NCBI GenBank assembly: GCA_038063895.1
Contig: JBBTUG010000012.1
Coordinates: forward strand, 78,165 to 142,164
DNA: 64,000 nucleotides
Source of the DNA: Patescibacteria group bacterium
GTDB lineage: Bacteria; Patescibacteriota; WWE3; JAMCXX01; JBBTUG01
Direction: 5' to 3'
Shown here piece by piece: positions 859 to 49,560 of the stretch (within the stretch, counting starts at the first letter, position 1; every line of letters starts with the position of its first letter). The notes beneath the pieces were generated by a model, which saw only the letters and a program-made list of their open reading frames with translations, had not been told where the DNA came from and searched no databases. Position numbers and translations under genes: made by a program.

Positions 859-1998
859 ATGGACTTAATTTTCCAAGATAGTAAAAAACGAATAATCGAT
901 AAGAAAGAGGCTGTTCCTTTTACTTTAGATGATTCAGGTTTTTACCTGGTAGGCGTCGCCGCACGCGCCAAAGATGAAAAACAAGTAGGCGGTACCGACG
1001 ACGATGACCTTAGAATCGAGTTAGATAAAACAACGTTTCCCCAACTTACCAACTTAAATCGGTATTTAGATTCACCGGCTGCATTCTCTGGAGGCAAACT
1101 CAGAGACCGTAAGCAACATGTGCTCACATTAACGAACCTTCAGAAAGGTACCCATAACCTTACATTAATCCCGGACGGTTCTCCAACCTTGGAAGAAATT
1201 AATATCTGGAAGCTCCCTTCCCAAAGCACCCTCGAACTAAAAATGAATAATACCGCCGAGGATGGAAACCGTCGGCCTTGGGTGGTGTTTATCTTATTAA
1301 ACGCTTCCCTTGGAGAGTTTTCAGTCGATCTGACCCTAAAACGCCGATTTATTGATAGTGATGATGTAAAAATAGCTGTTGATGGTGTCATTATCAGAAA
1401 CAACCGAAGTGTTCTTCATAAATTTTGGTATTTCATAGCTTCTTTATTCGGCCAGGAAATTAAAAGCAACACGTTTAAAACCAAATTAGCTATCGGACTT
1501 CATTACATCGAGTTATGGGCAGATCGAATGCCAACCCTTAATTCAATCACGTTTAGGGATCTAATATTCCCCCAATCAGAAGAAAAAGACCCCGTAGAAA
1601 TTATCAAAGATAAGATTATAGCCATGGCTAGAGAATACGGTTTCGACCCTGAAATGATGCTTCGGGTAGCAAAAAAAGAATCTCAATTCAATCCCCGAGC
1701 CGTCTCTCCCGCTGGAGCTAAAGGACTTTTTCAACTAATGCCAATTACAATTGATCAAATTAATAATTTAGGTTACGAGGTTAGCGATGTTTTTAATGTT
1801 GATCAAAACATTAAAGGCGCAATGATTTACTTCCAGTGGCTTTCAGGGATGTACCCCAAGGATGAAGAGTACTGGGAAAAGATCATGGCTGCTTGGAATT
1901 GGGGGCAAGGAAACTTTCCCAAAGAAGGACCGCTAGGTGCGTGGAAACCCGTTCCAAACGAAACTATTAACTTTATAAATTACGTTTTAAATAGATGA
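859..1998 (+). CDS. Two-domain protein with no signal peptide: conserved N-terminal domain of unknown function (~250 aa, paralogous to 56940..58301) plus a C-terminal lytic transglycosylase / SLT lysozyme-like domain
   Basis: C-terminus has the classic SLT motif ...KKESQFNPRAVSPAGAKGLFQLMPIT...AYN-like. N-terminal region aligns with the ORF at 56940..58301 (MxLIFxD..KR.I, ARAK.EKQ.G, DSPAA.SGGK, AEDGxRRPW, KRxxDSDDxKIxVDG, FWYF, GLHYxExxADRMP). Confidence 0.8.
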   Translation: MDLIFQDSKKRIIDKKEAVPFTLDDSGFYLVGVAARAKDEKQVGGTDDDDLRIELDKTTFPQLTNLNRYLDSPAAFSGGKLRDRKQHVLTLTNLQKGTHNLTLIPDGSPTLEEINIWKLPSQSTLELKMNNTAEDGNRRPWVVFILLNASLGEFSVDLTLKRRFIDSDDVKIAVDGVIIRNNRSVLHKFWYFIASLFGQEIKSNTFKTKLAIGLHYIELWADRMPTLNSITFRDLIFPQSEEKDPVEIIKDKIIAMAREYGFDPEMMLRVAKKESQFNPRAVSPAGAKGLFQLMPITIDQINNLGYEVSDVFNVDQNIKGAMIYFQWLSGMYPKDEEYWEKIMAAWNWGQGNFPKEGPLGAWKPVPNETINFINYVLNR

Positions 1999-2647: not shown

Positions 2648-3136
2648 ATGATCACCGACACCTATCCTCCATTCCTCGAAAAAATATTGTCCGGTCTTAA
2701 TGACAAAAAGGTTGAGGTGACTGATATGGAAATGGATCACATCGGCTATCAGACTGCATCCGGCCTCGAATATGAAAAGATGTTACCAGAGGTTGCCAAG
2801 CTTGGTCCGCAAATTCATGAGGCCGTTGTTCGGGGGCGGCGGGTCGCCATCTTTAAACTGAACGAGAAACTCAACTACCGAAATTACTTCATCAGCGCGA
2901 TAGAAGTAATTGAACCTTTAGCCGGGCAAGTGTGCAATTCAGGCTGGGAACATGCCGAATTCGTCATCGGAAACTCTTTTGAGACTTTTCTTAAGAAATA
3001 CCCAACGGTTGACTGGGACATCAGCGCGATAAATCAGGACACCTTCCCGATGATAAAACTTAAACTGGAAAACGGCCTCCAAGCCAAATTCCACCTCAAA
3101 CCTGTCTTAGAAATAATTCGGGATATTAAATCATGA
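2648..3136 (+). CDS. Hypothetical protein, possibly VOC/YecM-like metal-binding fold
   Basis: 162 aa ORF containing a DHIGYQTAS motif; 4-nt overlap with the downstream HD gene. The family assignment is weak. Confidence 0.4.
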   Translation: MITDTYPPFLEKILSGLNDKKVEVTDMEMDHIGYQTASGLEYEKMLPEVAKLGPQIHEAVVRGRRVAIFKLNEKLNYRNYFISAIEVIEPLAGQVCNSGWEHAEFVIGNSFETFLKKYPTVDWDISAINQDTFPMIKLKLENGLQAKFHLKPVLEIIRDIKS

Positions 3137-4134
3137 AATACTCGGATCGGGTTTACGGGCAATTCAACATTACCGAACCGGTGATTTTAGAACTGATTAA
3201 TTGCCCGGCCATTCAAAGATTGAAAAAGATCGATCAGGCCGGCTACAAACCGCTTTGGGCAAAGCCGGAAACCAGGGTCAATGGCACAGAAGCCAGCCGT
3301 TTCGCCCATTCCGTAGGTGTTTTTATTCTTCTCAACAAATATCAGGCTCCCTTAGAAGAGCAAATAGCCGGCTTAATCCACGATGTCTCTCATTCGGCAT
3401 TTTCCCACTGTATTGACTATGTTTTGGATTCCGGTTCGGAAAAAGAACACACCCACCAGGACAGGCTCTTTCCCAGTTTTGTCCGTAAATCGGGGATACC
3501 GAAAATACTCGAAAAATACGGGTTCGCTCTGGATTATATTTTAGATGACGGAAATTTTCCGTTAAAGGAAAAAGAGTTGCCGGATCTCTGTGCCGACCGG
3601 ATTGATTATTCGCTGAGAGAAGCCGTTATTTATAATGAGCTGGGTGAAAAAGACCGTAATTATCTTCTAGATTCATTAACCGTAAAAGATAACTACTGGG
3701 TATTCAGCAGTTTTGAGAGCGGAAAAAAATACGCAGAGCTGTTCTTCCAATTAAATACAATCTATTTCTCCGGCCTTCCATCGGCAGTAATGTTTCGGGC
3801 GGTTGGCGATTGCCTGAAATACGCCTTAAAAGTAGGTTACCTTTCGGAAAACGACCTCTACACTACCGATGAAAAGGTTCTGGGGAAAATTAGAAATAAG
3901 GTGGATTCGGACGGGAAATTGAGTGTACTTTGGGACCGGATGAACGGTGTCATCAAAGCCCACAATGACCCAAGCGATTATGAATCAACAGTTTTTTGTA
4001 AATCCAGAATAGTCGATCCTTTATTCCTTAATGGCACAAAAGTGCAAAGGTTATCGGAAACTAAGCCGGAGTGGAAAAAGGTCGTCGAGCGGGAATCGAA
4101 ACCAAAACAATATTTTTTGAAATTTGAAAGGTAA
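3133..4134 (+). CDS. HD-superfamily phosphohydrolase (COG1078 / dNTP triphosphohydrolase-like)
   Basis: RFAHSVGV...LIHDVSHSAFSH...CADRIDYSLRE matches the H..HD..H..D metal-binding pattern of dGTPase-like HD proteins. Confidence 0.75.
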   Translation: MKYSDRVYGQFNITEPVILELINCPAIQRLKKIDQAGYKPLWAKPETRVNGTEASRFAHSVGVFILLNKYQAPLEEQIAGLIHDVSHSAFSHCIDYVLDSGSEKEHTHQDRLFPSFVRKSGIPKILEKYGFALDYILDDGNFPLKEKELPDLCADRIDYSLREAVIYNELGEKDRNYLLDSLTVKDNYWVFSSFESGKKYAELFFQLNTIYFSGLPSAVMFRAVGDCLKYALKVGYLSENDLYTTDEKVLGKIRNKVDSDGKLSVLWDRMNGVIKAHNDPSDYESTVFCKSRIVDPLFLNGTKVQRLSETKPEWKKVVERESKPKQYFLKFER

Positions 4135-4168
4135 CCGGCTAATACTCAACTTCCCACGCTAGCAAAAA

Positions 4169-4468
4169 ATGGTCAAACAGCTAAAACAGCCTAAACGGAT
4201 TAACTGGCACTTCGTTTATCTTCTAAAATGCTCTGATCGAACGCTATACTGCGGCTCAACTAATAATTTTCAGCGGCGGCTGAGGGAACACAATAAAGGA
4301 ACAGCAGCCCGCTACACCCGCGGCCGGCTTCCGGTAAAACTGGTTTATCTTGAAAAGCACAGTACGCTCTTATCAGCCAGAGGACGAGAACAAGAAATCA
4401 AAGGTTGGACAAAAAGAAAGAAACTGACGTTGATTAAAGATAATGCTCATGAATCTTTAAATAGATAA
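4169..4468 (+). CDS. GIY-YIG nuclease family protein (UPF0213/YhbQ-like)
   Basis: WHFVYLLKCSDRTLYCGSTNNFQRRLREHN...ARYTRGRLPVKLVYLE...EIKGWTKRKKLTLI is the canonical small GIY-YIG layout. Confidence 0.8.
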   Translation: MVKQLKQPKRINWHFVYLLKCSDRTLYCGSTNNFQRRLREHNKGTAARYTRGRLPVKLVYLEKHSTLLSARGREQEIKGWTKRKKLTLIKDNAHESLNR

Positions 4469-4472
4469 AAAA

Positions 4473-4504
4473 AGCTCCGAGTCTTGCTTAGCAAGTCGGA
4501 GCTC
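4473..4504. terminator. Bidirectional intrinsic terminator hairpin between convergent genes
   Basis: Imperfect inverted repeat agctccgagtcttgc-ttag-caagtcggagct. On the minus strand it is followed by TTTTTTATCTAT (strong U-tract). On the plus strand it is followed by cattt (weaker). Confidence 0.55.
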
Positions 4505-4590
4505 ATTTAACCTGAATTTTGCGGGCGAAGATCAACCCTTCGACAAGCTCAGGATTGTGCTGAGCAAAGTCGAAGCACAAGGAACAAAAA

Positions 4591-4630
4591 TCAAGAAGCT
4601 CAAGACTTCAAGATTCAAGCTCCAAGAACC
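4591..4630. repeat. Degenerate short tandem repeats (TCAAGA)n in the 3' region of the GC-rich gene
   Basis: tcaagaagc/tcaagact/tcaagat/tcaagc/tccaagaacc: five units with period 6-9 nt. Confidence 0.6.
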
Positions 4631-4632
4631 AC

Positions 4633-5535
4633 CTACCGCACGAAACCGGACGCCGACCCACAGTCACCGCTGGCATCACCAAGCCATCTGCGGTAGAACC
4701 TGAGCCGACCGCCACTGAAGCAGAAGCACAGGCCGGACTCGAACTCCGCGCCGCCCCCGGATCGATACTCGTCACCCGAACAATCAATGGCCAGGTGCTC
4801 GTACTTCTCGAGGTTCTCGAGGCGCTTCGGGTTGGTGAGAAGAACGTGCCCCACCACCCAAGCGGGTAACGGAAACTCGGTCGTACCGCGCTCCATTTCC
4901 CAACGGGCGTTCCGTGGGCTGTAACCACCCCACTTTTGACCGGTTTGGGCGGCCAACACCAGAAAATCTCCTGGTTGTTCCTTCTCGAGCTTGGCAATGG
5001 CGTCAATTGCCAACTGCCGCATCCGTACCCGGTCAGCTGTCAACTCACCGGCGCGGTAGTTGTGAAACTGCCGCTGACGGGCGAGGTGAGCCAGAACCGT
5101 GCTCTCGAGCATTTGCCCGTAGCCCTCACCGTACGGATTCTCGATTCCGAGCTCCACCGCGACGCGGCTAAGCTTGGGAATGATGAACAAGCCGTCGGCG
5201 GCCTGAGGAACCGCAATTCCCTTGGCCACTTCAACAACGTGTGATGCGTCAAGGTAAGGGTAAAAGTCTTGCAAGACCTTCTGTTGATCAAAGATCGTCG
5301 TGGGACTCCAGCCCTTCGGGTAGAAGTAGCGGACCTCCGTCTTCTCCCTGGCGAACGGATTAGCCATCTCCCCGATAACCTTGACGAGTAACTCGCGGGG
5401 GATTGTGCCGTTGCCGATTCTGAGAAGAAAATCAAAGTTCTCCAACCACCTTTGAATCTCCGTCGGACCAAAATTGTGCTCGTCGAAGCGCTCGATTAAC
5501 GCCTTCAACGGGCCCCAGATAAATTGAGTAGCCAT
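4633..5535 (-). CDS. Hypothetical protein (300 aa) of unknown family encoded in a markedly GC-rich (~58-60%) segment; probably horizontally acquired
   Basis: Long ORF; several long antisense ORFs in the same segment are a typical high-GC artefact. Flanks are 38-45% GC. The C-terminal tail is low complexity (GGGAEFESGLCFCFSGG...). Confidence 0.6.
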   Translation of the reverse strand: MATQFIWGPLKALIERFDEHNFGPTEIQRWLENFDFLLRIGNGTIPRELLVKVIGEMANPFAREKTEVRYFYPKGWSPTTIFDQQKVLQDFYPYLDASHVVEVAKGIAVPQAADGLFIIPKLSRVAVELGIENPYGEGYGQMLESTVLAHLARQRQFHNYRAGELTADRVRMRQLAIDAIAKLEKEQPGDFLVLAAQTGQKWGGYSPRNARWEMERGTTEFPLPAWVVGHVLLTNPKRLENLEKYEHLAIDCSGDEYRSGGGAEFESGLCFCFSGGRLRFYRRWLGDASGDCGSASGFVR

Positions 5536-5691: not shown

Positions 5692-6144
5692 TTAGCGTTT
5701 TGACCACTGGGGTTTGCGGCGGGCGCGAAGGTGCCCGTACTTTTTTCTTTCCTTCATTCGGGAATCCCGGGTTAAAAGCTTCTCGGTCTTCAGTAAAGCC
5801 CTGAATTCGGGATTAAATTCGACCAAAGCCCGGGACAACCCGTGCGTAACGGCTTCCAGCTGGGAGTAAATTCCCCCGCCGCGAACTTTAATTGAGCCGG
5901 TAAATTTTCCCAAGACATCCGTAATTTGAAACGGCCGGAGATAAGAAGCCTCAGCCTGTTCCCGGGTCACGGAATGAAAATAAGCCGCAATCGGTAACCC
6001 GTTAACAACCATGCCCGCACCAGCCCCTTTGCCTTTTTCGAAAAGCCAAACCCGGGCCACCGAGGTTTTCCGCCGGCCCGTACCCGAGAAAAATTTTCCT
6101 TTGACAGGCTTCTCCGCCGTAACTGTTGTTTTTTCTTTAACCAT
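5692..6144 (-). CDS. rpsI: 30S ribosomal protein S9
   Basis: GRRKTSVARV...ends RKKYGHLRARRKPQWSKR. Confidence 0.9.
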   Translation of the reverse strand: MVKEKTTVTAEKPVKGKFFSGTGRRKTSVARVWLFEKGKGAGAGMVVNGLPIAAYFHSVTREQAEASYLRPFQITDVLGKFTGSIKVRGGGIYSQLEAVTHGLSRALVEFNPEFRALLKTEKLLTRDSRMKERKKYGHLRARRKPQWSKR

Positions 6145-7995: not shown

Positions 7996-8050
7996 AATTA
8001 TATTTAAATCAAAAAAAACCCGCCCGCCGTGCCGGAGGGGAAAATCCAGA

Positions 8051-8566
8051 CTACCTGCCTGAATAATACTCTAAAGCAAGGGTTTCGTCAATATCCGGCT
8101 CAATTTCCGTATTTTCAGGCAATCGGACGACCAAAACAGTCATTTTCTTCCGGTCAAGCTTTAACCATCCCGGCACTACGGCCTCTTCCGACAAGGAAAA
8201 ACGGGAAAGAGAAAGGGCATCGTCAACATTCAATAAATACGAAGCGGTCAAAACCCGGCGTCCGTTAACCTTAACCTTGCCGTGCCGGATCAGCTGTTTC
8301 GCATTGGCGCGGGAAGAAACCCCTATACGGTAAAGGACATTATCCAGCCTCCGCTCCAACAGGGTTAACAAAGAAACAACTCCGGATTTTTTTAGGCGCC
8401 GGAAAGCGACGACATAATTTTTAACCTGACGATCACGGATTAAGTAAGCCTGTTTTATTTTCCGGGCTTCTTTCAACCGCAGCGCGTATTCGGAAGGGCG
8501 GCGCATTCCCCGCCGTGATTTAACCGCTAAGTTGCCTGTTCGTTCTCTTGTAACTTGGTAAGCCAT
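8051..8566 (-). CDS. rpsD: 30S ribosomal protein S4
   Basis: LERRLDNVLYRIGVSSRANAKQLIRHGKVKVNGRRV is the S4 domain. Confidence 0.9.
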   Translation of the reverse strand: MAYQVTRERTGNLAVKSRRGMRRPSEYALRLKEARKIKQAYLIRDRQVKNYVVAFRRLKKSGVVSLLTLLERRLDNVLYRIGVSSRANAKQLIRHGKVKVNGRRVLTASYLLNVDDALSLSRFSLSEEAVVPGWLKLDRKKMTVLVVRLPENTEIEPDIDETLALEYYSGR

Positions 8567-22705: not shown

Positions 22706-23143
22706 TTATTTAATTGAAAGGCTTACCTCTCCATTCCGTCCCCCCGGAACCGGGCCGCTAACACCGAGTTTCTTATTCTCTTGGTCTATTAATATTAGCT
22801 TCAAGCCCTTCACAGTAACATTATTGTTACCCATCCGGCCGGCCATCCGCTTGCCTTTATAAACGCGTCCCGGGGTGGTTGTTCCGCCGATAGAGCCCGG
22901 TCCCCGATGCCGGTCGGATTGTCCGTGAGTCGCCGGACCGCCTTTGAAGTGGTGAAGCTTAACAACCCCCTGAAAACCTTTACCCTTAGAAACACTGCGG
23001 ATCACCACTGGTGATCCGAGGGAAAGATCCGACCAAACGCGGTCATCCGTACCGATTAGGGAAAGAAGGGTTACCGGAACCACTTTCCCGTCCGGATTAA
23101 AAATCTGGGTCATTTCAATTTTTTTTGCTTTCAGTTTCAACAT
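22706..23143 (-). CDS. rplC: 50S ribosomal protein L3, unusually short (145 aa; about 60-75 aa of the usual middle region absent)
   Basis: N-terminus KKIEMTQIFNPDGKVVPVTLL and C-terminal SKGKGFQGVVKLHHFKGGPATHGQSDRHRGPGSIGGTTTPGRVYKGKRMAG are both L3-like. The segment that normally lies between them is replaced by about 22 residues. Confidence 0.85.
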   Translation of the reverse strand: MLKLKAKKIEMTQIFNPDGKVVPVTLLSLIGTDDRVWSDLSLGSPVVIRSVSKGKGFQGVVKLHHFKGGPATHGQSDRHRGPGSIGGTTTPGRVYKGKRMAGRMGNNNVTVKGLKLILIDQENKKLGVSGPVPGGRNGEVSLSIK

Positions 23144-23177
23144 ATTTTATCTGCGTAAATCTTTTCCTATCCAACAA

Positions 23178-23205
23178 AAAAGGCGCTTCCCTGGCGCCCA
23201 GTAAA
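23178..23205 (-). terminator. Short GC hairpin + U6 tract on the minus strand about 35 nt upstream of the rplC start codon; candidate leader attenuator
   Basis: Minus strand reads ggcgc-cagggaa-gcgcc-TTTTTTgttgg. The stem is only 5-6 bp. Confidence 0.4.
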
Positions 23206-23491
23206 GAATCCAAAGCCAGACTCAGCCTAGATCTACGGATCAGCGGTTATGAAATGCTTCCGGCGCCTTACCATCAGTATATTAACAAAACAGTACCCTG
23301 GCGGGCTACCGCCAAGATGGACAGATTATATCGGACAATGACGGCCTCGTCAAGCCTAAAGTAAAGCAGGTTAAGCCAGTAGATTAAGCTCGCACCATCT
23401 TGGAAGGTAGCCTATAATAGCAGAGCTGGGGGGGGCTAGCTCTACGCCAAATCGACCGAAGCCAGCTTCACTTGATTTTCGCTCGTCGGAA

Positions 23492-24211
23492 TTGGACAAT
23501 GCACTAGCTATGATTCTTGAACAGGAGTTACATCCGATACAAATGAATATTTTAAGGACGCTGCTTTTTATCCCGGCCGCCCGTTTTACCCAGCTCAACA
23601 ATCAAAAAATAGGCACTGACCAGTTTAACTTTCATCTAAAAAGACTGTTGGCTTTAAGCCTCGTCGAGAAACAAGGGGCAAGATATTATTCACTGACCAT
23701 CAAGGGAAAGGAGGCCGCCAACCAAATGGACACCGACACGGCCACCTTCGAGAAGCAGGCTAAAGTTGCTGTGTTGATCGTCGGCGTCCGTCGACAGCGT
23801 AATCGCCAAGAATTCTTAGTGCAAAAAAGATTAAAACAGCCCTATTACGGTTTCCATGGCTTTATCTCCGGCAAAGTTCGGTGGGGAGAAATATTGAAAG
23901 AAGCGGCGGCTAGAGAATTTAAAGAAGAAGCGGGGCTTTCGACAAGGCTGGAACTTAAAGGAATTAAGCATAAAATCGATTACGATCAAAGCGGTCTGCT
24001 CCTTGAGGATAAGTATTTTTTTGTCTTTCGGGCCAATAATCCCAGCGGGAAGTTGATCAATAAATTTGAGGGCGGCGAGAATTCGTGGCTGACAAGAGAA
24101 GACATACTTCGACTACCACAACTATTTGACGGAGTCGACGAGTCTCTAAAAATTATTTTGGGACGAAGACTATTATTTAGTGAAGACAAATATAACGTCA
24201 GCCACTATTAG
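23492..24211 (+). CDS. Winged-helix (MarR-like) DNA-binding domain fused to a C-terminal NUDIX hydrolase domain; encoded antisense between rpsJ and rplC
   Basis: Nudix box GFISGKVRWGEILKEAAAREFKEEAGL. N-terminal region IQMNILRTLLFIPAARFTQL...FHLKRLLALSLVEKQG...YSLTIKG is wHTH-like. Confidence 0.75.
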   Translation: MDNALAMILEQELHPIQMNILRTLLFIPAARFTQLNNQKIGTDQFNFHLKRLLALSLVEKQGARYYSLTIKGKEAANQMDTDTATFEKQAKVAVLIVGVRRQRNRQEFLVQKRLKQPYYGFHGFISGKVRWGEILKEAAAREFKEEAGLSTRLELKGIKHKIDYDQSGLLLEDKYFFVFRANNPSGKLINKFEGGENSWLTREDILRLPQLFDGVDESLKIILGRRLLFSEDKYNVSHY

Positions 24212-24264
24212 TCAAAGAAGGAAGAACCAAACACAGACCAAGGGAATCGGTGCTAGTCACCAAC

Positions 24265-24579
24265 TTACATTTTAATCTCAATTCCCACCCCGGCTGGGAG
24301 GGAGAGATTGGAGAGGCTTTCAATGGTTTTCGGAGTCGGTTCGTAAATATCAATCAGTCTTTTGTGGGTCCTGATTTCGAAAGCTTCGTGCGATCTTTTG
24401 TCAACGTGAGGACCGCGGATGACGGTCTGTCTTTCAATATCAGTGGGAAGAGGAATAGGACCAACCACTTTTGCCCCCGTACGGATGGCGGTCTCAATGA
24501 TACTTTCAGTCGTCCGGTCAATAACCCGGCTGTCATAGGCTTTTAAGCGAACTCGGATGCGTGATTCTTTCTTTGCCAT
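24265..24579 (-). CDS. rpsJ: 30S ribosomal protein S10
   Basis: [46 protein letters not shown]. Confidence 0.9.
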
Positions 24580-24635: not shown

Positions 24636-25826
24636 TTAGGCTACGACTTTTGATACGACACCCGCCCCGACGGTGTGGCCACCTTCGCGGATTGCAAACC
24701 TTAACCCCTCTTCGAGCGCAACCGGAGTAATCAGTTTTACTTTTGCCTTGACGTTATCACCGGGCATAACCATCTCGGTTCCGGCCGAAAGCATCGCCTC
24801 GCCAGTCACATCCGTTGTCCGGAAGTAGAACTGTGGCCGGTAGCCGGTGAAGAACGGAGTATGGCGGCCGCCCTCTTCTTTCGTCAGAATATAAATCTCA
24901 GCCTCAAACTCAGTGTGGGGCTTGACACTGCCGGGAGCGGCAAGAACCTGACCGCGCTCAACATCCGTCCGTTCAATTCCGCGGAGCAGAATCCCGACGT
25001 TGTCACCGGCCTGTCCCTCATCCATCGATTTTTTAAACATCTCCACTCCGGTAACAACGGTTTTCTGCGTTTCCCGGATACCGACAATTTCGATCTCTTC
25101 GTTCAGTTTAACACGGCCACGCTCAATCCTTCCGGTAACTACCGTTCCCCGGCCCATAATGGAGAAAATATCTTCAACCGGCATCAGGAAAGGCTTATCG
25201 AGCTCACGAACAGGCGTCGGGATGTACTCATCAACTGCGGCCATCAACTCTTCGATACTTTTTACCGCCGCCGGATCACCCTCAAGAGCTTTAAGAGCGC
25301 TACCGCGGATAACCGGAATCTTGTCACCCGGGAACTGGTATTTTGTCAGGAGCTCACGAATCTCGACTTCAACCAGGTCAAGCAACTCTTTATCATCAAC
25401 CATGTCACACTTGTTCATAAAAACGACAACTGCGGGAACGTTAACCTGGTGGGCTAAAAGGATGTGCTCCCGGGTTTGGGGCATCGGTCCGTCAGGAGCG
25501 GAGACGACTAAAATCGCGCCATCCATTTGGGCGGCGCCGGTAATCATGTTCTTAATATAATCCGCGTGACCAGGACAATCGATGTGGGCGTAGTGGCGCT
25601 TTTCGGTTTCGTACTCGACGTGGGCGATGGAGATCGTAATCCCGCGTTCACGCTCTTCCGGAGCGGCGTCGATTGAGTCGAAAGGACGGTAGCTTGCCCC
25701 GCCTTTACCGGCGAGAACTTTCGTAATCGCAGAAGTCAGAGTGGTTTTCCCATGGTCAACGTGACCAATGGTACCAACGTTTAAATGCGGTTTGTTCCTT
25801 TCGTATTTTTGTCTTGTTTCAGCCAT
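24636..25826 (-). CDS. tuf: Elongation factor Tu
   Basis: [19 protein letters not shown]...[26 protein letters not shown]. Confidence 0.95.
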
Positions 25827-25901: not shown

Positions 25902-28031
25902 TTAGCGACCGGCTTCGGCACCGATAATTTTTTGTCCGACGTTATCGGGAACCTCCTGGTAGTGGCTGGGTTCCATGGCAAAAACCCCACGGCCCTGGGT
26001 TAAGGAACGGACGCTGGTCGCGTAACCGAACATCTCGGATAACGGAACCAGCGCATCAATAGCCCTGACGTTACCGCGGGATTCGGTTCCCGAAATAGTC
26101 GCCCGGCGAGAAGAAAGATCCCCGATAACTTCACCCATATATTCTTCCGGGACAGTCACCTCTAACTTCATAATCGGTTCGAGAAAAACGGGCGAAGCGC
26201 GGCGGGCCCCTTCGCGAGTGGCTTCTGAAGCGGCAATTTTAAAGGCCATTTCGGAGGAATCAACATCGTGGTAACTGCCGTCAAAAACCGTAATTTTCAG
26301 GTCGGTCAGAGGGTAGCCGGACAAAACTCCCTTGTCGAGGGCTTCCCGGACACCCTTTTCCACGGCCGGAACGAACTCAATGGGAATTGATCCACCTTTA
26401 ATTTTATTTTCAAATTCGAATCCTTGCCCAGGTGGGAGAGGCTCAAGACGGAGAAAGACGTGCCCGTACTGACCGCGCCCGCCAGACTGGTGGACGTACT
26501 TCCCCTCCTGCTCGACCAGTTTTCGGATCGTTTCCCGGTAGGCGACTTGCGGGCGGCCGACGTTAGCCTCAACTTTAAACTCCCGGCGCATCCGGTCAAC
26601 AATAATTTCCAAGTGCAACTCCCCCATTCCGGAGATAATAACCTGGCCGGTTTCCTGATCGGTGCGCACCTTAAAGGTCGGGTCTTCTTCGGCAAATTTC
26701 CGGATAGCCAAGCCCATTTTTTCCTGATCGACCTTGGTTTTTGGCTCAATCGCAACGGAAACAACCGGTTCGGGAAACTTAATGGATTCCAGAATAATAG
26801 GCTTACCGTCATCCGAGAGAGTATCACCCGTGAAAGTATCTTTGAGTCCGACGGCGGCGCCAATTTCTCCGGCGACCAAATCGGCTACCTCTTCACGGTC
26901 GTTAGCATGCATCAACAGTAATCGGCTAAGACGCTCCTTCAGGTCACGGCGGGTATTTTGAACATACGTCCCGGCCGTCAATTTACCGGAATAAACGCGG
27001 ATGTAGGTCAGACGGCCGACGTAAGGATCGGTCTGAACTTTAAAAGCTAGAGCCGCCAACGGGGCGTCGGGATCGGCGATGCGGGATTCCGCTTCACCGG
27101 TTTTAGGACTCGTACCGGTTACCGGGGGCAGATCCATCGGCGACGGCAGGTATTCAACAGCCGCATCCAAAATTGAACGGACCAGACCCTTCCGGGCATC
27201 GCCGCCCAGAACCGGGAAAAGTTTTCCGGAGGTAGTTCCCGCACGAAGAGCTCTCCGCAAAGTCATTGTACTGGCCGGTTCTCCGGCCAGATATTTTTCC
27301 ATCAACTCCTGATCAAAATCAGCCGCCTTCTCCAGCAGCAGGTCGCGGTACTTCTCGACCTGTTCTTTCATCTCAACCGGAATTTCCTCGACCTTCACTT
27401 CGGAACCGTTTTCATTACCGTAAACAAAGGACTTAAGCAGAACTAAATCAACGTAGCCCCTAAGTTCCGACTCGCGTCCGATCGGTAACTGGATGGCGAC
27501 AGCATTGGCGCCCAGCTTCTCACGGATTGAATTAAGGCTCATCACAAAATCGCCGCCGATGAGGTTCAGTTTATTAACGTAGCAAATCCGGGGAACGTGA
27601 TATTTATCGGCTTGGCGCCAGACGGTTTCGGATTGCGGTTCCACGCCACACTTGCCGTCAAAAACCACAACCGCCCCGTCCAAAACCCGCAGTGACCTCT
27701 CGACCTCAGCGGTAAAGTCGACGTGACCGGGCGTATCAATGATATTAATCCGGTGTGGGCCTAAGTCAGGCTCATCGACCGGTTGCCACAAACAAGTAGT
27801 TGCCGCCGAGGTAATAGTAATACCCCGTTCCCGTTCCTGGGCCATCCAGTCCATTTGGGTTGTCCCTTCATCAATATTCCCGATCTTGTGAATGATTCCC
27901 GTGAGGTAAAGAACGGTTTCGGTAGTGGTTGTTTTCCCGGCGTCAATGTGAGCGATAATCCCAATGTTACGGATTTTTGACAGCGGGATTAATTTTTCTT
28001 TTTCAACATCAAGCTTCGTCGGCATATTCAA
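25902..28031 (-). CDS. fusA: Elongation factor G (start at TTG 28031 or ATG 28025)
   Basis: [19 protein letters not shown]...DTPGHVDFT... 709 aa. Confidence 0.95.
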
Positions 28032-49163: not shown

Positions 49164-49411
49164 ACACTAGTATGTTACCCGACTGTTTAGTCAGTTGTCA
49201 ATAGGTGATGTTCACGAAGAAGGGATGTGGCGATTAACATAAAGATAAAACCTAAACTAAAAAAAGCAGAAAGCTGGCGGCGGGTAAGGTTTTATAAGGT
49301 GCGAAGTCACGTTTACCGTGACGAAGATGTCTTAGATAATTCCAAGACGATTGTCCCACCGCCAACTTTCTGCCTTTCAATAATTAGTACCCTATCTTAC
49401 CATTTTAACAC

Positions 49412-49472
49412 AAATGTCCTATAATGTCAACTATAAGGGTATATTAGGAGTGGGGTTAAACTGTGATAAAAT
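49412..49472 (+). promoter_or_regulatory. Candidate promoter(s) for tRNA-Cys
   Basis: TTACCA-17 nt-TATAAT at about 49398-49426, and an extended -10 TGtGATAAAAT about 15 nt upstream of the tRNA 5' end. Confidence 0.4.
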
Positions 49473-49485
49473 GGAAATTGAAAGG

Positions 49486-49560
49486 GGCGCGGTGGCGAAG
49501 TGGAAACGCTGGAGTCTGCAAAACTTCGATGCGAGGGTTCGATTCCCTCCCGCGCCTCCA
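49486..49560 (+). tRNA. tRNA-Cys(GCA) with encoded CCA
   Basis: Acceptor GGCGCGG/CCGCGCC, U8, D-loop with GG, anticodon stem ggagt/acttc, loop cU-GCA-aa, T-arm gaggg-TTCGATT-ccctc, discriminator U, CCA. Confidence 0.9.

Follow-up and report, generated by a model that had tools for sequence, protein, structure and literature searches.

The Escherichia coli S10 leader is said, in the work of Zengel and Lindahl, to act through L4-mediated attenuation together with translational control. Leader-peptide attenuators of the trpL type constitute another known design, and TnaC is a stalling peptide that ends in Pro-stop, an ending that slows termination. To our knowledge, the leaders known for ribosomal protein (r-protein) operons are mostly confined to well-studied phyla, and almost nothing is known about how the Candidate Phyla Radiation (CPR, or Patescibacteria), with its minimal genomes and few recognisable regulators, balances ribosome production. 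Two further r-protein leaders are close to the case described here, namely the leader of infC-rpmI-rplT in Bacillus subtilis, an L20-dependent terminator/antiterminator switch (PMC1865079), and an L4 r-leader candidate, rated uncertain by its authors, upstream of rplC, rplD, rplW and rplB in the Archaeoglobi (Eckert and Weinberg 2020, PMC7247131). The present analysis concerns the DNA upstream of rplC, the gene for r-protein L3, in a 64,000-nucleotide (nt) stretch from the metagenome-assembled genome of a Patescibacteria group bacterium (assembly GCA_038063895.1, contig JBBTUG010000012.1, positions 78,165 to 142,164; hereafter the window). Here, rplC is separated from rpsJ by a gene on the opposite strand that encodes a winged helix-turn-helix (wHTH) and a Nudix domain. 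From sequence comparison, this DNA is best read as an attenuator of rplC-operon transcription, specific to the clade, in which a terminator-like hairpin probably throttles r-protein production. Quite possibly, in a view that we hold tentatively, two independent things share the gap between rpsJ and rplC: an autonomous Nudix cassette, and an rplC operon with its own promoter and attenuator leader.

The first gene of the rplC operon and the elements upstream of it are, in the predicted order of transcription:

23325–23353, minus strand: rplC-operon promoter of the sigma70 type (−35 TTGACG at 23353–23348, 17-nt spacer, −10 TATAAT at 23330–23325)
23318–23144, minus strand: leader of about 175 nt, downstream of the conserved promoter, the 5' untranslated region of the r-protein operon
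23295–23318, minus strand: 5'-proximal leader hairpin of 10 bp
23233–23274, minus strand: candidate leader open reading frame (ORF), MVRRRKHFITADP then stop, with a conserved ATG just 5' of segment 1
23262–23269, minus strand: segment 1, AAGGCGCC, complementary to the GGCGCC of the terminator 5' arm (pairing 1:2) and to GCGCCUU, the 3' arm plus two U (pairing 1:3)
23198–23230, minus strand: hairpin P3 (CUAG..GAGUC-loop-GAUUC..CUGG), from RNAalifold on the window, L092 and L093; its 3' strand enters the terminator 5' arm
23176–23199, minus strand: terminator-like hairpin of segments 2 and 3 (GGGCGCC-AGGGAA-GCGCC at 23199–23182), then U6 at 23181–23176
22706–23143, minus strand: rplC (L3), which leads rplC-rplD-rplW-rplB-rpsS-rplV-rpsC (ORF call and Pfam)

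An independent rplC promoter, the lack of which the earlier note on this DNA had named as a ground for doubt, is very likely. The sequence TTGACG-17-TATAAT matches at 11 of 12 positions, a score that three sites in the 64 kb reach, both strands counted. In L011 and L093–L095 (the L numbers designate loci compared with the window), both hexamers and their spacing are identical while the sequence of the spacer differs. Transcription would start at about 23318 on the minus strand. A second promoter-like site, TTGCC(C/G)-17-TAAAGT/TATGAT, stands nearer the leader core in L011, L096 and L102; the 5'-proximal hairpin, to which a hairpin in L093 is related, is missing in L096 and L102, where this second promoter lies nearer the ATG. 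Another site in the window, TGGATA-18-TAAAAT (23173–23144), was rejected as the rplC promoter, as it ends at the ATG and is not conserved.

Six distinct leaders were compared, those of the window, L092, L093, L011, L096 and L102. All share a core that consists of the ATG, segment 1, a variable middle of 60–70 nt, GGGCGCC-loop-GCGCC and a U-run, with 76–88 nt from the leader ATG to the terminator in all six. The middle is unalignable between subgroups by MAFFT; what both subgroups retain is the ATG, segment 1, the stop, both arms of the terminator and the U-run. A profile made from the six leaders matched only upstream of rplC in the window, L092, L093–L095, L011, L096 and L102 (E 1e-22 to 1e-28); against 441 kb of sequence it found nothing else at E<1 and a single site in the window, and within the same 441 kb the terminator motif is restricted to these sites. 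L101 offered merely 25 nt upstream of rplC, and a scan of Joint Genome Institute (JGI) metagenomes with L3, which returned mostly distant taxa, yielded no further leaders. The leader occurs together with the Nudix gene, with a wHTH-only remnant of it (L096) and without the gene (L093). It is this conservation in relatives, rather than the window alone, that makes promoter and hairpin more than chance.

The terminator is followed by as few as 13 nt before the rplC ATG in L093, by 32 nt in the window, counted from the U6, and by as many as about 115 nt in L096. As 13 or 32 nt is too short for another promoter, rplC transcripts must traverse the hairpin in L093 and the window. The GC hairpin with U6 shortly before rplC that the earlier note had described is present at 23199–23176, and the attenuator-like cis leader that it had proposed is conserved among relatives, non-conservation being what it had named as counting against the idea; the hairpin-to-start spacing reminiscent of the S10 leader, by comparison, is not conserved. 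Its structured leader of about 350 nt was an overstatement. The non-coding DNA between rplC and the Nudix start codon at 23510 does extend over about 366 nt, but the gap is a composite and not a single leader, being made up of the Nudix promoter and operator, a G8-loop hairpin, the promoter of rplC and the roughly 175 nt of leader, in which folding is no stronger than in shuffled sequences (see below).

The three segments of the leader are mutually complementary. Because GGCGCC is its own reverse complement, both arms of the terminator are open to pairing with segment 1, which reads AGGCGC in five of the six leaders and GGGCGC at the aligned position in L093. In every one of the six leaders an upstream segment is computed to pair with a terminator arm to the exclusion of the hairpin, and the forced 1:2, 1:3 and 2:3 pairings lie within about 0–10 kcal/mol of each other. 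RNAalifold folds the subgroup of the window, L092 and L093 into 1:3 plus two internal hairpins and the other subgroup into the 2:3 terminator. A GC-rich hairpin and U-run stand between a promoter and the first start codon, as in an attenuator. The sequence GCUCAUUAC in P3 of L092 and L093 was considered as a boxA and rejected, since it is absent from subgroup 2 and lies inside a predicted helix.

Each of the six leaders has a short ORF that starts at the conserved ATG and runs through segment 1; no other ATG ORF is common to all of them. The ORF has 13–18 codons and reads, each followed by a stop, MVRRRKHLLIADP in L092, MRENGGRRNGLIITDP in L093, MRRRAYMSFGMAAWRSTF in L011, MVRRAEKAVGQVRRRQLP in L096 and MVRRADGVVGQTGRKQLP in L102. 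From ATG to stop the six measure 39, 39, 48, 54, 54 and 54 nt, all in frame and differing by whole codons. Segment 1 corresponds to codons 3–5, with Arg codons inside it. The window ORF ends in Asp-Pro-stop within the conserved CUGAUCCGUAG, and a Pro-stop end, with CCG or CCU as the Pro codon, is found in five of the six (background 8.3%). Further, the stop lies 29–35 nt from the terminator arm in all six leaders. Exactly 7 nt separate the end of the −10 box from the leader ATG in L011, L096 and L102, the same leaderless geometry as in the Nudix gene. The missing Shine–Dalgarno sequence before the ORF carries no weight, because many genes here, rplC included, lack one.

We infer from these features a leader RNA whose transcription starts at the conserved promoter, whose hairpin terminates, whose alternative pairings are used and whose ORF is translated. 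The rplC operon would be transcribed from the promoter at 23353–23325 through the attenuator leader. When segment 1 (23269–23262) pairs with either hairpin arm, no terminator would form and RNA polymerase would enter rplC; when segment 1 is sequestered, the GGGCGCC/GCGCC hairpin with its U6 (23199–23176) would form, and transcription would stop before rplC. The input would be translation of the 13–18-codon leader ORF, which in some relatives is apparently leaderless. A ribosome pausing at Pro-stop, between segments 1 and 2, would block the antiterminator and so cause termination. Plentiful idle ribosomes would in this manner shut off r-protein mRNA, while scarcity of ribosomes would leave the ORF empty and the operon read. 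That the leader senses ribosomes through occupancy of its ORF is possible and no more probable than that. It is slightly preferred over the other explanations because it accounts for the conserved ATG, the kept frame, the Pro-stop, the spacing from stop to terminator and the unconserved middle at once.

Several observations weigh against an attenuator of this kind. The minimum free energy of the leader is −49.4 kcal/mol, which gives z = +0.07 against shuffles and therefore no thermodynamic signal, and the window hairpin is weak, with 6 bp, −9.6 kcal/mol and z = −0.39; the region holds 6 terminator-like sites where 2.8 +/- 2.2 are expected. With three sequences per subgroup, RNAalifold counts 1 and 5 compensatory pairs, the GGCGC pairs hardly vary, and the changes in P3 among the window, L092 and L093 are one-sided only. 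The six leaders perhaps represent two or three independent lineages. The leader peptide sequence is not conserved: L096 and L102 differ by 3, 4 and 2 changes at codon positions 1, 2 and 3, and, with the changes so spread, substitutions are not enriched at third positions. The ORF of L011 ends in Phe-stop, and UCCNUAG could be conserved for reasons at the level of the RNA. It should also be noted that the features of the ORF were noticed after the fact, and the predicted ORF is suggestive only. Moreover, we know of no leader-peptide attenuator for an r-protein operon.

Of the other explanations, autogenous feedback survives best, and it too is doubtful. Here, a protein of the operon, with L4 as the candidate, would bind the leader and bring about termination, a block of rplC translation, or both. 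The position of the leader directly upstream of rplC-rplD and its layout of promoter, leader and terminator suit this proposal, and precedent comes from L20, which runs such a switch in the B. subtilis infC leader (PMC1865079), and from the Archaeoglobi candidate upstream of rplC, rplD, rplW and rplB (PMC7247131). The 1:3 closing helix with two internal hairpins would be a plausible protein-binding junction. Yet this central domain, where binding is expected, differs between the two leader subgroups, and the conserved ATG, the kept frame and the Pro-stop are left unexplained. Further, neither a curated r-leader model nor any other Rfam family matched the gap at the gathering threshold or even at E<=10, and ARAGORN found no tRNA in it. 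Neither the window nor the loci contain any rRNA.

A constitutive leaky terminator or insulator, which would sense nothing and would either fix the ratio of fusA-tuf-rpsJ to the downstream r-protein genes or halt read-through and antisense transcription, is unlikely. It draws on a pattern that extends beyond the six leaders. A GC hairpin and U-run precede rplC also in L012, L058, L085, L097, L099, L013 and L019, in the first five of these within the rpsJ-rplC spacer, and in all seven without an extended leader. The hairpins of the distant relatives are strong (for example AAGCGCC-loop-GGCGCUU, z −2 to −3.3), lie with their U-run 10–25 nt before rplC, and are located as follows:

L012, 2448–2500: hairpin and U-run before rplC
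L097, 1355–1412: the same
L099, 2445–2500: the same
L058 and L085: hairpin in the rpsJ-rplC spacer
L013 and L019: hairpin upstream of rplC

In a JGI sample of 63 loci with both genes, rpsJ and rplC are co-directional in all 63 with a median spacer of about 16 nt, so that the near-universal adjacency from which the earlier note set out is borne out; the spacer contains such a hairpin and U-run in only three of them, and these three are the nearest to the window by EF-Tu identity. On sequence evidence, the wider clade thus seems to share a terminator-like seam at the rpsJ-rplC junction, and the dedicated promoter with an extended leader is a trait of the window's subclade. The weakness of the window hairpin also suits a leaky terminator, as does the scan of the minus strand from rpsJ to the rplC promoter, which found no terminator-like site, so that read-through transcripts can reach the hairpin. 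On the other hand, a near-consensus promoter about 135–145 nt upstream (window, L011 and L093) would be wasteful for an unregulated element, and a plain terminator needs neither segment 1 nor the ATG, both of which are conserved.

Still less probable, and to be regarded as very unlikely, is a gene in its own right, for a small RNA or a micro-protein of 13–18 amino acids (aa), that merely adjoins rplC. Its own promoter and terminator-like end would yield a product of about 100–145 nt, its spacing to rplC varies from 13 to about 115 nt and a conserved ATG ORF lies inside; but it is always found immediately 5' of rplC and nowhere else, is followed so closely by rplC in L093 and the window that a promoter for that gene would not fit in between, has no Rfam match, and encodes a peptide whose sequence is not conserved.

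The rplC leader, as read here, is of a known kind, an r-protein operon attenuator, without homology to any curated family, and no such leader is known to have been described in this phylum. The E. coli S10 leader resembles it in its length of about 170 nt from the operon promoter, in an operon that contains rplC and rplD, and in a hairpin and U-run about 30 nt before the first cistron. It differs in preceding rpsJ, whereas the window leader precedes rplC, and in having no antiterminator, whereas the window leader has three mutually complementary segments; the two share no sequence or Rfam similarity. The B. subtilis infC leader, at about 200 nt, similarly combines a terminator with a competing structure, but belongs to a different operon, has no homology to the window leader and has a known ligand, L20, while the window leader carries a candidate ORF. 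Like the window leader, the Archaeoglobi L4 candidate stands directly 5' of an operon that starts with rplC and leaves rpsJ outside the unit; it is archaeal, and no Rfam family matched the window, a result that would cover this candidate if Rfam includes it. With the trpL and TnaC types the window leader has in common a short predicted ORF that overlaps the first alternative segment, an intrinsic terminator-like hairpin downstream and a Pro-stop end, which five of the six leaders show. The predicted window ORF has, in contrast, no runs of cognate codons, the operon after it is one of r-proteins and not of biosynthesis or catabolism, and where the tna operon uses Rho, the window element has an intrinsic terminator-like hairpin. 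A full-text search of the literature found no paper that pairs the exact phrase 'ribosomal protein leader' with Patescibacteria.

The leader lies next to a rearranged gene order, of which the remaining features are:

25902–28031, minus strand: fusA (ORF call and Pfam)
24636–25826, minus strand: tuf (ORF call and Pfam)
24265–24579, minus strand: rpsJ (S10), which closes the fusA-tuf-rpsJ unit (ORF and Pfam Ribosomal_S10, E 3.2e-32)
24212–24264: spacer of 53 nt from the Nudix stop codon to that of the convergent rpsJ
23510–24211, plus strand: wHTH-Nudix gene, 233 aa from the ATG at 23510 (Pfam NUDIX, homologues, AlphaFold 2 model)
23458–23500, plus strand: Nudix control region with the palindrome GAAGC-CA-GCTTC (23458–23469), −35-like TTGATT (23472–23477) and −10-like GACAAT (23495–23500)
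23422–23443: hairpin AGAGCT-G8CT-AGCTCT with a G8/C8 loop, adjoined by a plus-strand TATAAT at 23413–23418

As the earlier note had it, a plus-strand gene splits rpsJ from rplC and is convergent with rpsJ. The order rpsJ (−), Nudix (+), gap, rplC (−) is found in the window/L009 and again in the independent assemblies L011 and L010 plus L102; the L011 Nudix protein is 67% identical to that of the window. The ends of L010 (1–26) and L102 (1–28), two contigs of one genome, share a perfect palindrome (ATGGAGCCCCACGGCT..AGCCGTGGGGCTCCAT) that separates the Nudix gene from the rplC promoter and marks an assembly break point. Other relatives differ. L097–L100 have the ordinary order of rpsJ, about 100 nt and then rplC. 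In L096, rpsJ and rplC are on the same strand, 760 nt apart, and the sole ORF between them (1458–1670, minus strand) is a 70-aa wHTH-only frame 59% identical to the N-terminus of the window protein; it has no Nudix domain left and is a gene in decay or else a wHTH that stands alone. In L093, rpsJ is co-stranded and 292 nt upstream of rplC, and there is no Nudix gene. L013, L019 and L021, all with a short L3, have no rpsJ 5' of rplC and instead have unrelated ORFs there, apparently for membrane or surface proteins; the group has therefore seen more than one break of the junction.

Because neither strand has a terminator-like site in the 53-nt spacer between the rpsJ and Nudix stop codons (24212–24264), the convergent transcripts must overlap, and expression of the Nudix gene may be hampered by strong transcription of tuf-rpsJ. 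Only 1 nt separates the corresponding stop codons in L011 (2779–2781). As the minus strand likewise has no terminator-like site before the rplC promoter, read-through from tuf-rpsJ, antisense across the Nudix gene, is possible, and the earlier supposition that such read-through is impossible is not cleanly applicable. The split junction is an ordinary rearrangement at a transcriptional seam that existed before or arose with it. Within the gap, the ORFs at 23125–23364 (plus) and 23371–23601 (minus) were set aside as spurious, since they have no Pfam matches and overlap the leader and the promoters. The G8-loop hairpin and the plus-strand TATAAT pointed out earlier are present, but a comparison with L011 shows neither to be conserved; the hairpin is probably incidental or an insulator between divergent promoters. 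The real Nudix −10 is GACAAT at 23495–23500.

NrtR proteins are Nudix-related regulators in which a Nudix and a winged-helix domain are fused (PMC2330246). In the window protein, the C-terminal domain matches NUDIX (PF00293, E 3.9e-15) and the N-terminal part matches weakly DUF7347, a winged helix. The AlphaFold model, made with 30 homologues, has a mean pLDDT of 89.5 and places H-H-H-beta-beta over residues 9–62, which by this model form a winged helix (about residues 9–62), and a Nudix fold at about residues 85–201. The Nudix box GX5EX7REUXEEXGU is intact as GKVRWGEILKEAAAREFKEEAGL (residues 121–143, nt 23870–23938), so that fold and box together place the protein in the Nudix superfamily; the nearest solved folds are MTH1/MutT (Foldseek E about 1e-9). 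Pfam and the model thus uphold the earlier description of a winged helix and Nudix fusion in reversed order. The protein shares with NrtR the fusion itself and a palindromic operator, putative here, at the promoter. The wHTH is N-terminal (9–62), however, the Nudix box is intact, the operator has another sequence, no genes of nicotinamide adenine dinucleotide (NAD) metabolism are nearby and the fold is closest to MutT/MTH1 and not to ADP-ribose pyrophosphatase. Given the reversed domain order and the intact box, it is not NrtR. The frame is open from a TTG at 23492 (23492–24211) and the public annotation starts it at 23543; as homologues have 230–233 aa, the ATG at 23510 is the most likely start.

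The Nudix gene appears to carry its own control. The two boxes of its promoter are separated by a 17-nt spacer, and the −10-like GACAAT ends 9 nt ahead of the ATG at 23510, a leaderless-like geometry. A 14-bp palindrome, TGAAG-N4-CTTCA, lies upstream of 10 of the 12 family members examined (window, L011, L001–L007 and L103). Wherever present, it adjoins a −35-like TTGAtt, followed by a −10-like box that ends 6–9 nt before the ATG. L096 has the half-site CTTCAC alone, and the palindrome was not found in the 54 nt available upstream of the gene in L010. In L001–L007, L011, L096 and L103 this region is placed about 130 nt upstream of the Nudix start. In the 64-kb window there is a single exact copy (23458–23469), about 105 bp from the rplC −35, and matches with one mismatch elsewhere in the window are at chance level (5 versus 3.9 expected). 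Self-regulation through a palindrome at the gene's own −35 is plausible, and in this respect the earlier proposal of a regulator holds; collectively, these observations suggest an autonomous cassette with its own promoter and operator-like palindrome that is probably autoregulated.

The wHTH-Nudix family is recurrent at the edges of r-protein clusters. In L001, L003, L005, L008 and L103/L104 the family gene lies directly 3' of S4-rpoA-L17-L13-S9 on the same strand (at about 3000–4700 in each), while in the window the gene next to S9 (rpsI, 5692–6144) is not of the Nudix family. The gene occurs in both leader subgroups and is missing only in L093. The second half of the earlier proposal, that this protein is a ligand-responsive regulator of the r-protein operon, can draw on a gene divergent from the rplC promoter, a family that repeatedly adjoins r-protein clusters (after rpsI in five or six relatives) and an intact Nudix box joined to a DNA-binding domain, but it is highly improbable and is left unsupported, because the leader and its promoter exist without the gene (L093) or with a truncated wHTH (L096), and further because the sole palindrome copy is at the gene's own −35, about 105 bp from the rplC −35, L010 has the gene order of the window without the palindrome, and the usual place after rpsI is downstream, not upstream, of r-protein genes. 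As judged from the sequences, the wHTH-Nudix gene is a passenger and not a regulator of the ribosomal operon, and nothing ties it to rplC control.

Three other observations concern the surroundings. The L3 protein of the window has 145 aa only and is without roughly residues 27–106 of a typical 223-aa L3 (reference: Gottesmanbacteria P0191); an L3 of 140–150 aa is common to the closest relatives, including proteins named WWE3. At 7996–8091 (minus strand), the 3' end of rpsD contains a promoter-like TTGACG-17-TATTAT, and after it come a GC-rich stretch and a T8 about 15 nt before the rpoA ATG; together they may be a second promoter-and-terminator module within the r-protein supercluster. At 49397–49430, opposed near-consensus promoter-like sites, TTACCA-17-TATAAT (plus) and TTGACA-17-TAAAAT (minus), lie about 60 nt upstream of tRNA-Cys (49486–49560).

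In this clade, the 'universal' rpsJ-rplC junction is a transcriptional seam, with fusA-tuf-rpsJ and the rplC operon as separate units. In archaea, the two are likewise separate. Because of the seam, a foreign cassette is tolerated at the junction, and the wHTH-Nudix family to which that cassette belongs could be a new nucleotide-responsive autoregulator. The rplC leader itself is a compact and tractable candidate, in which a promoter, some 100 nt of core and a terminator would control at least seven genes from rplC to rpsC, and it admits two sharply different models of its input, r-protein binding and translation of the leader ORF. If ribosome sensing proves true, the supply of ribosomes would feed back on the synthesis of r-protein mRNA with no r-protein repressor.

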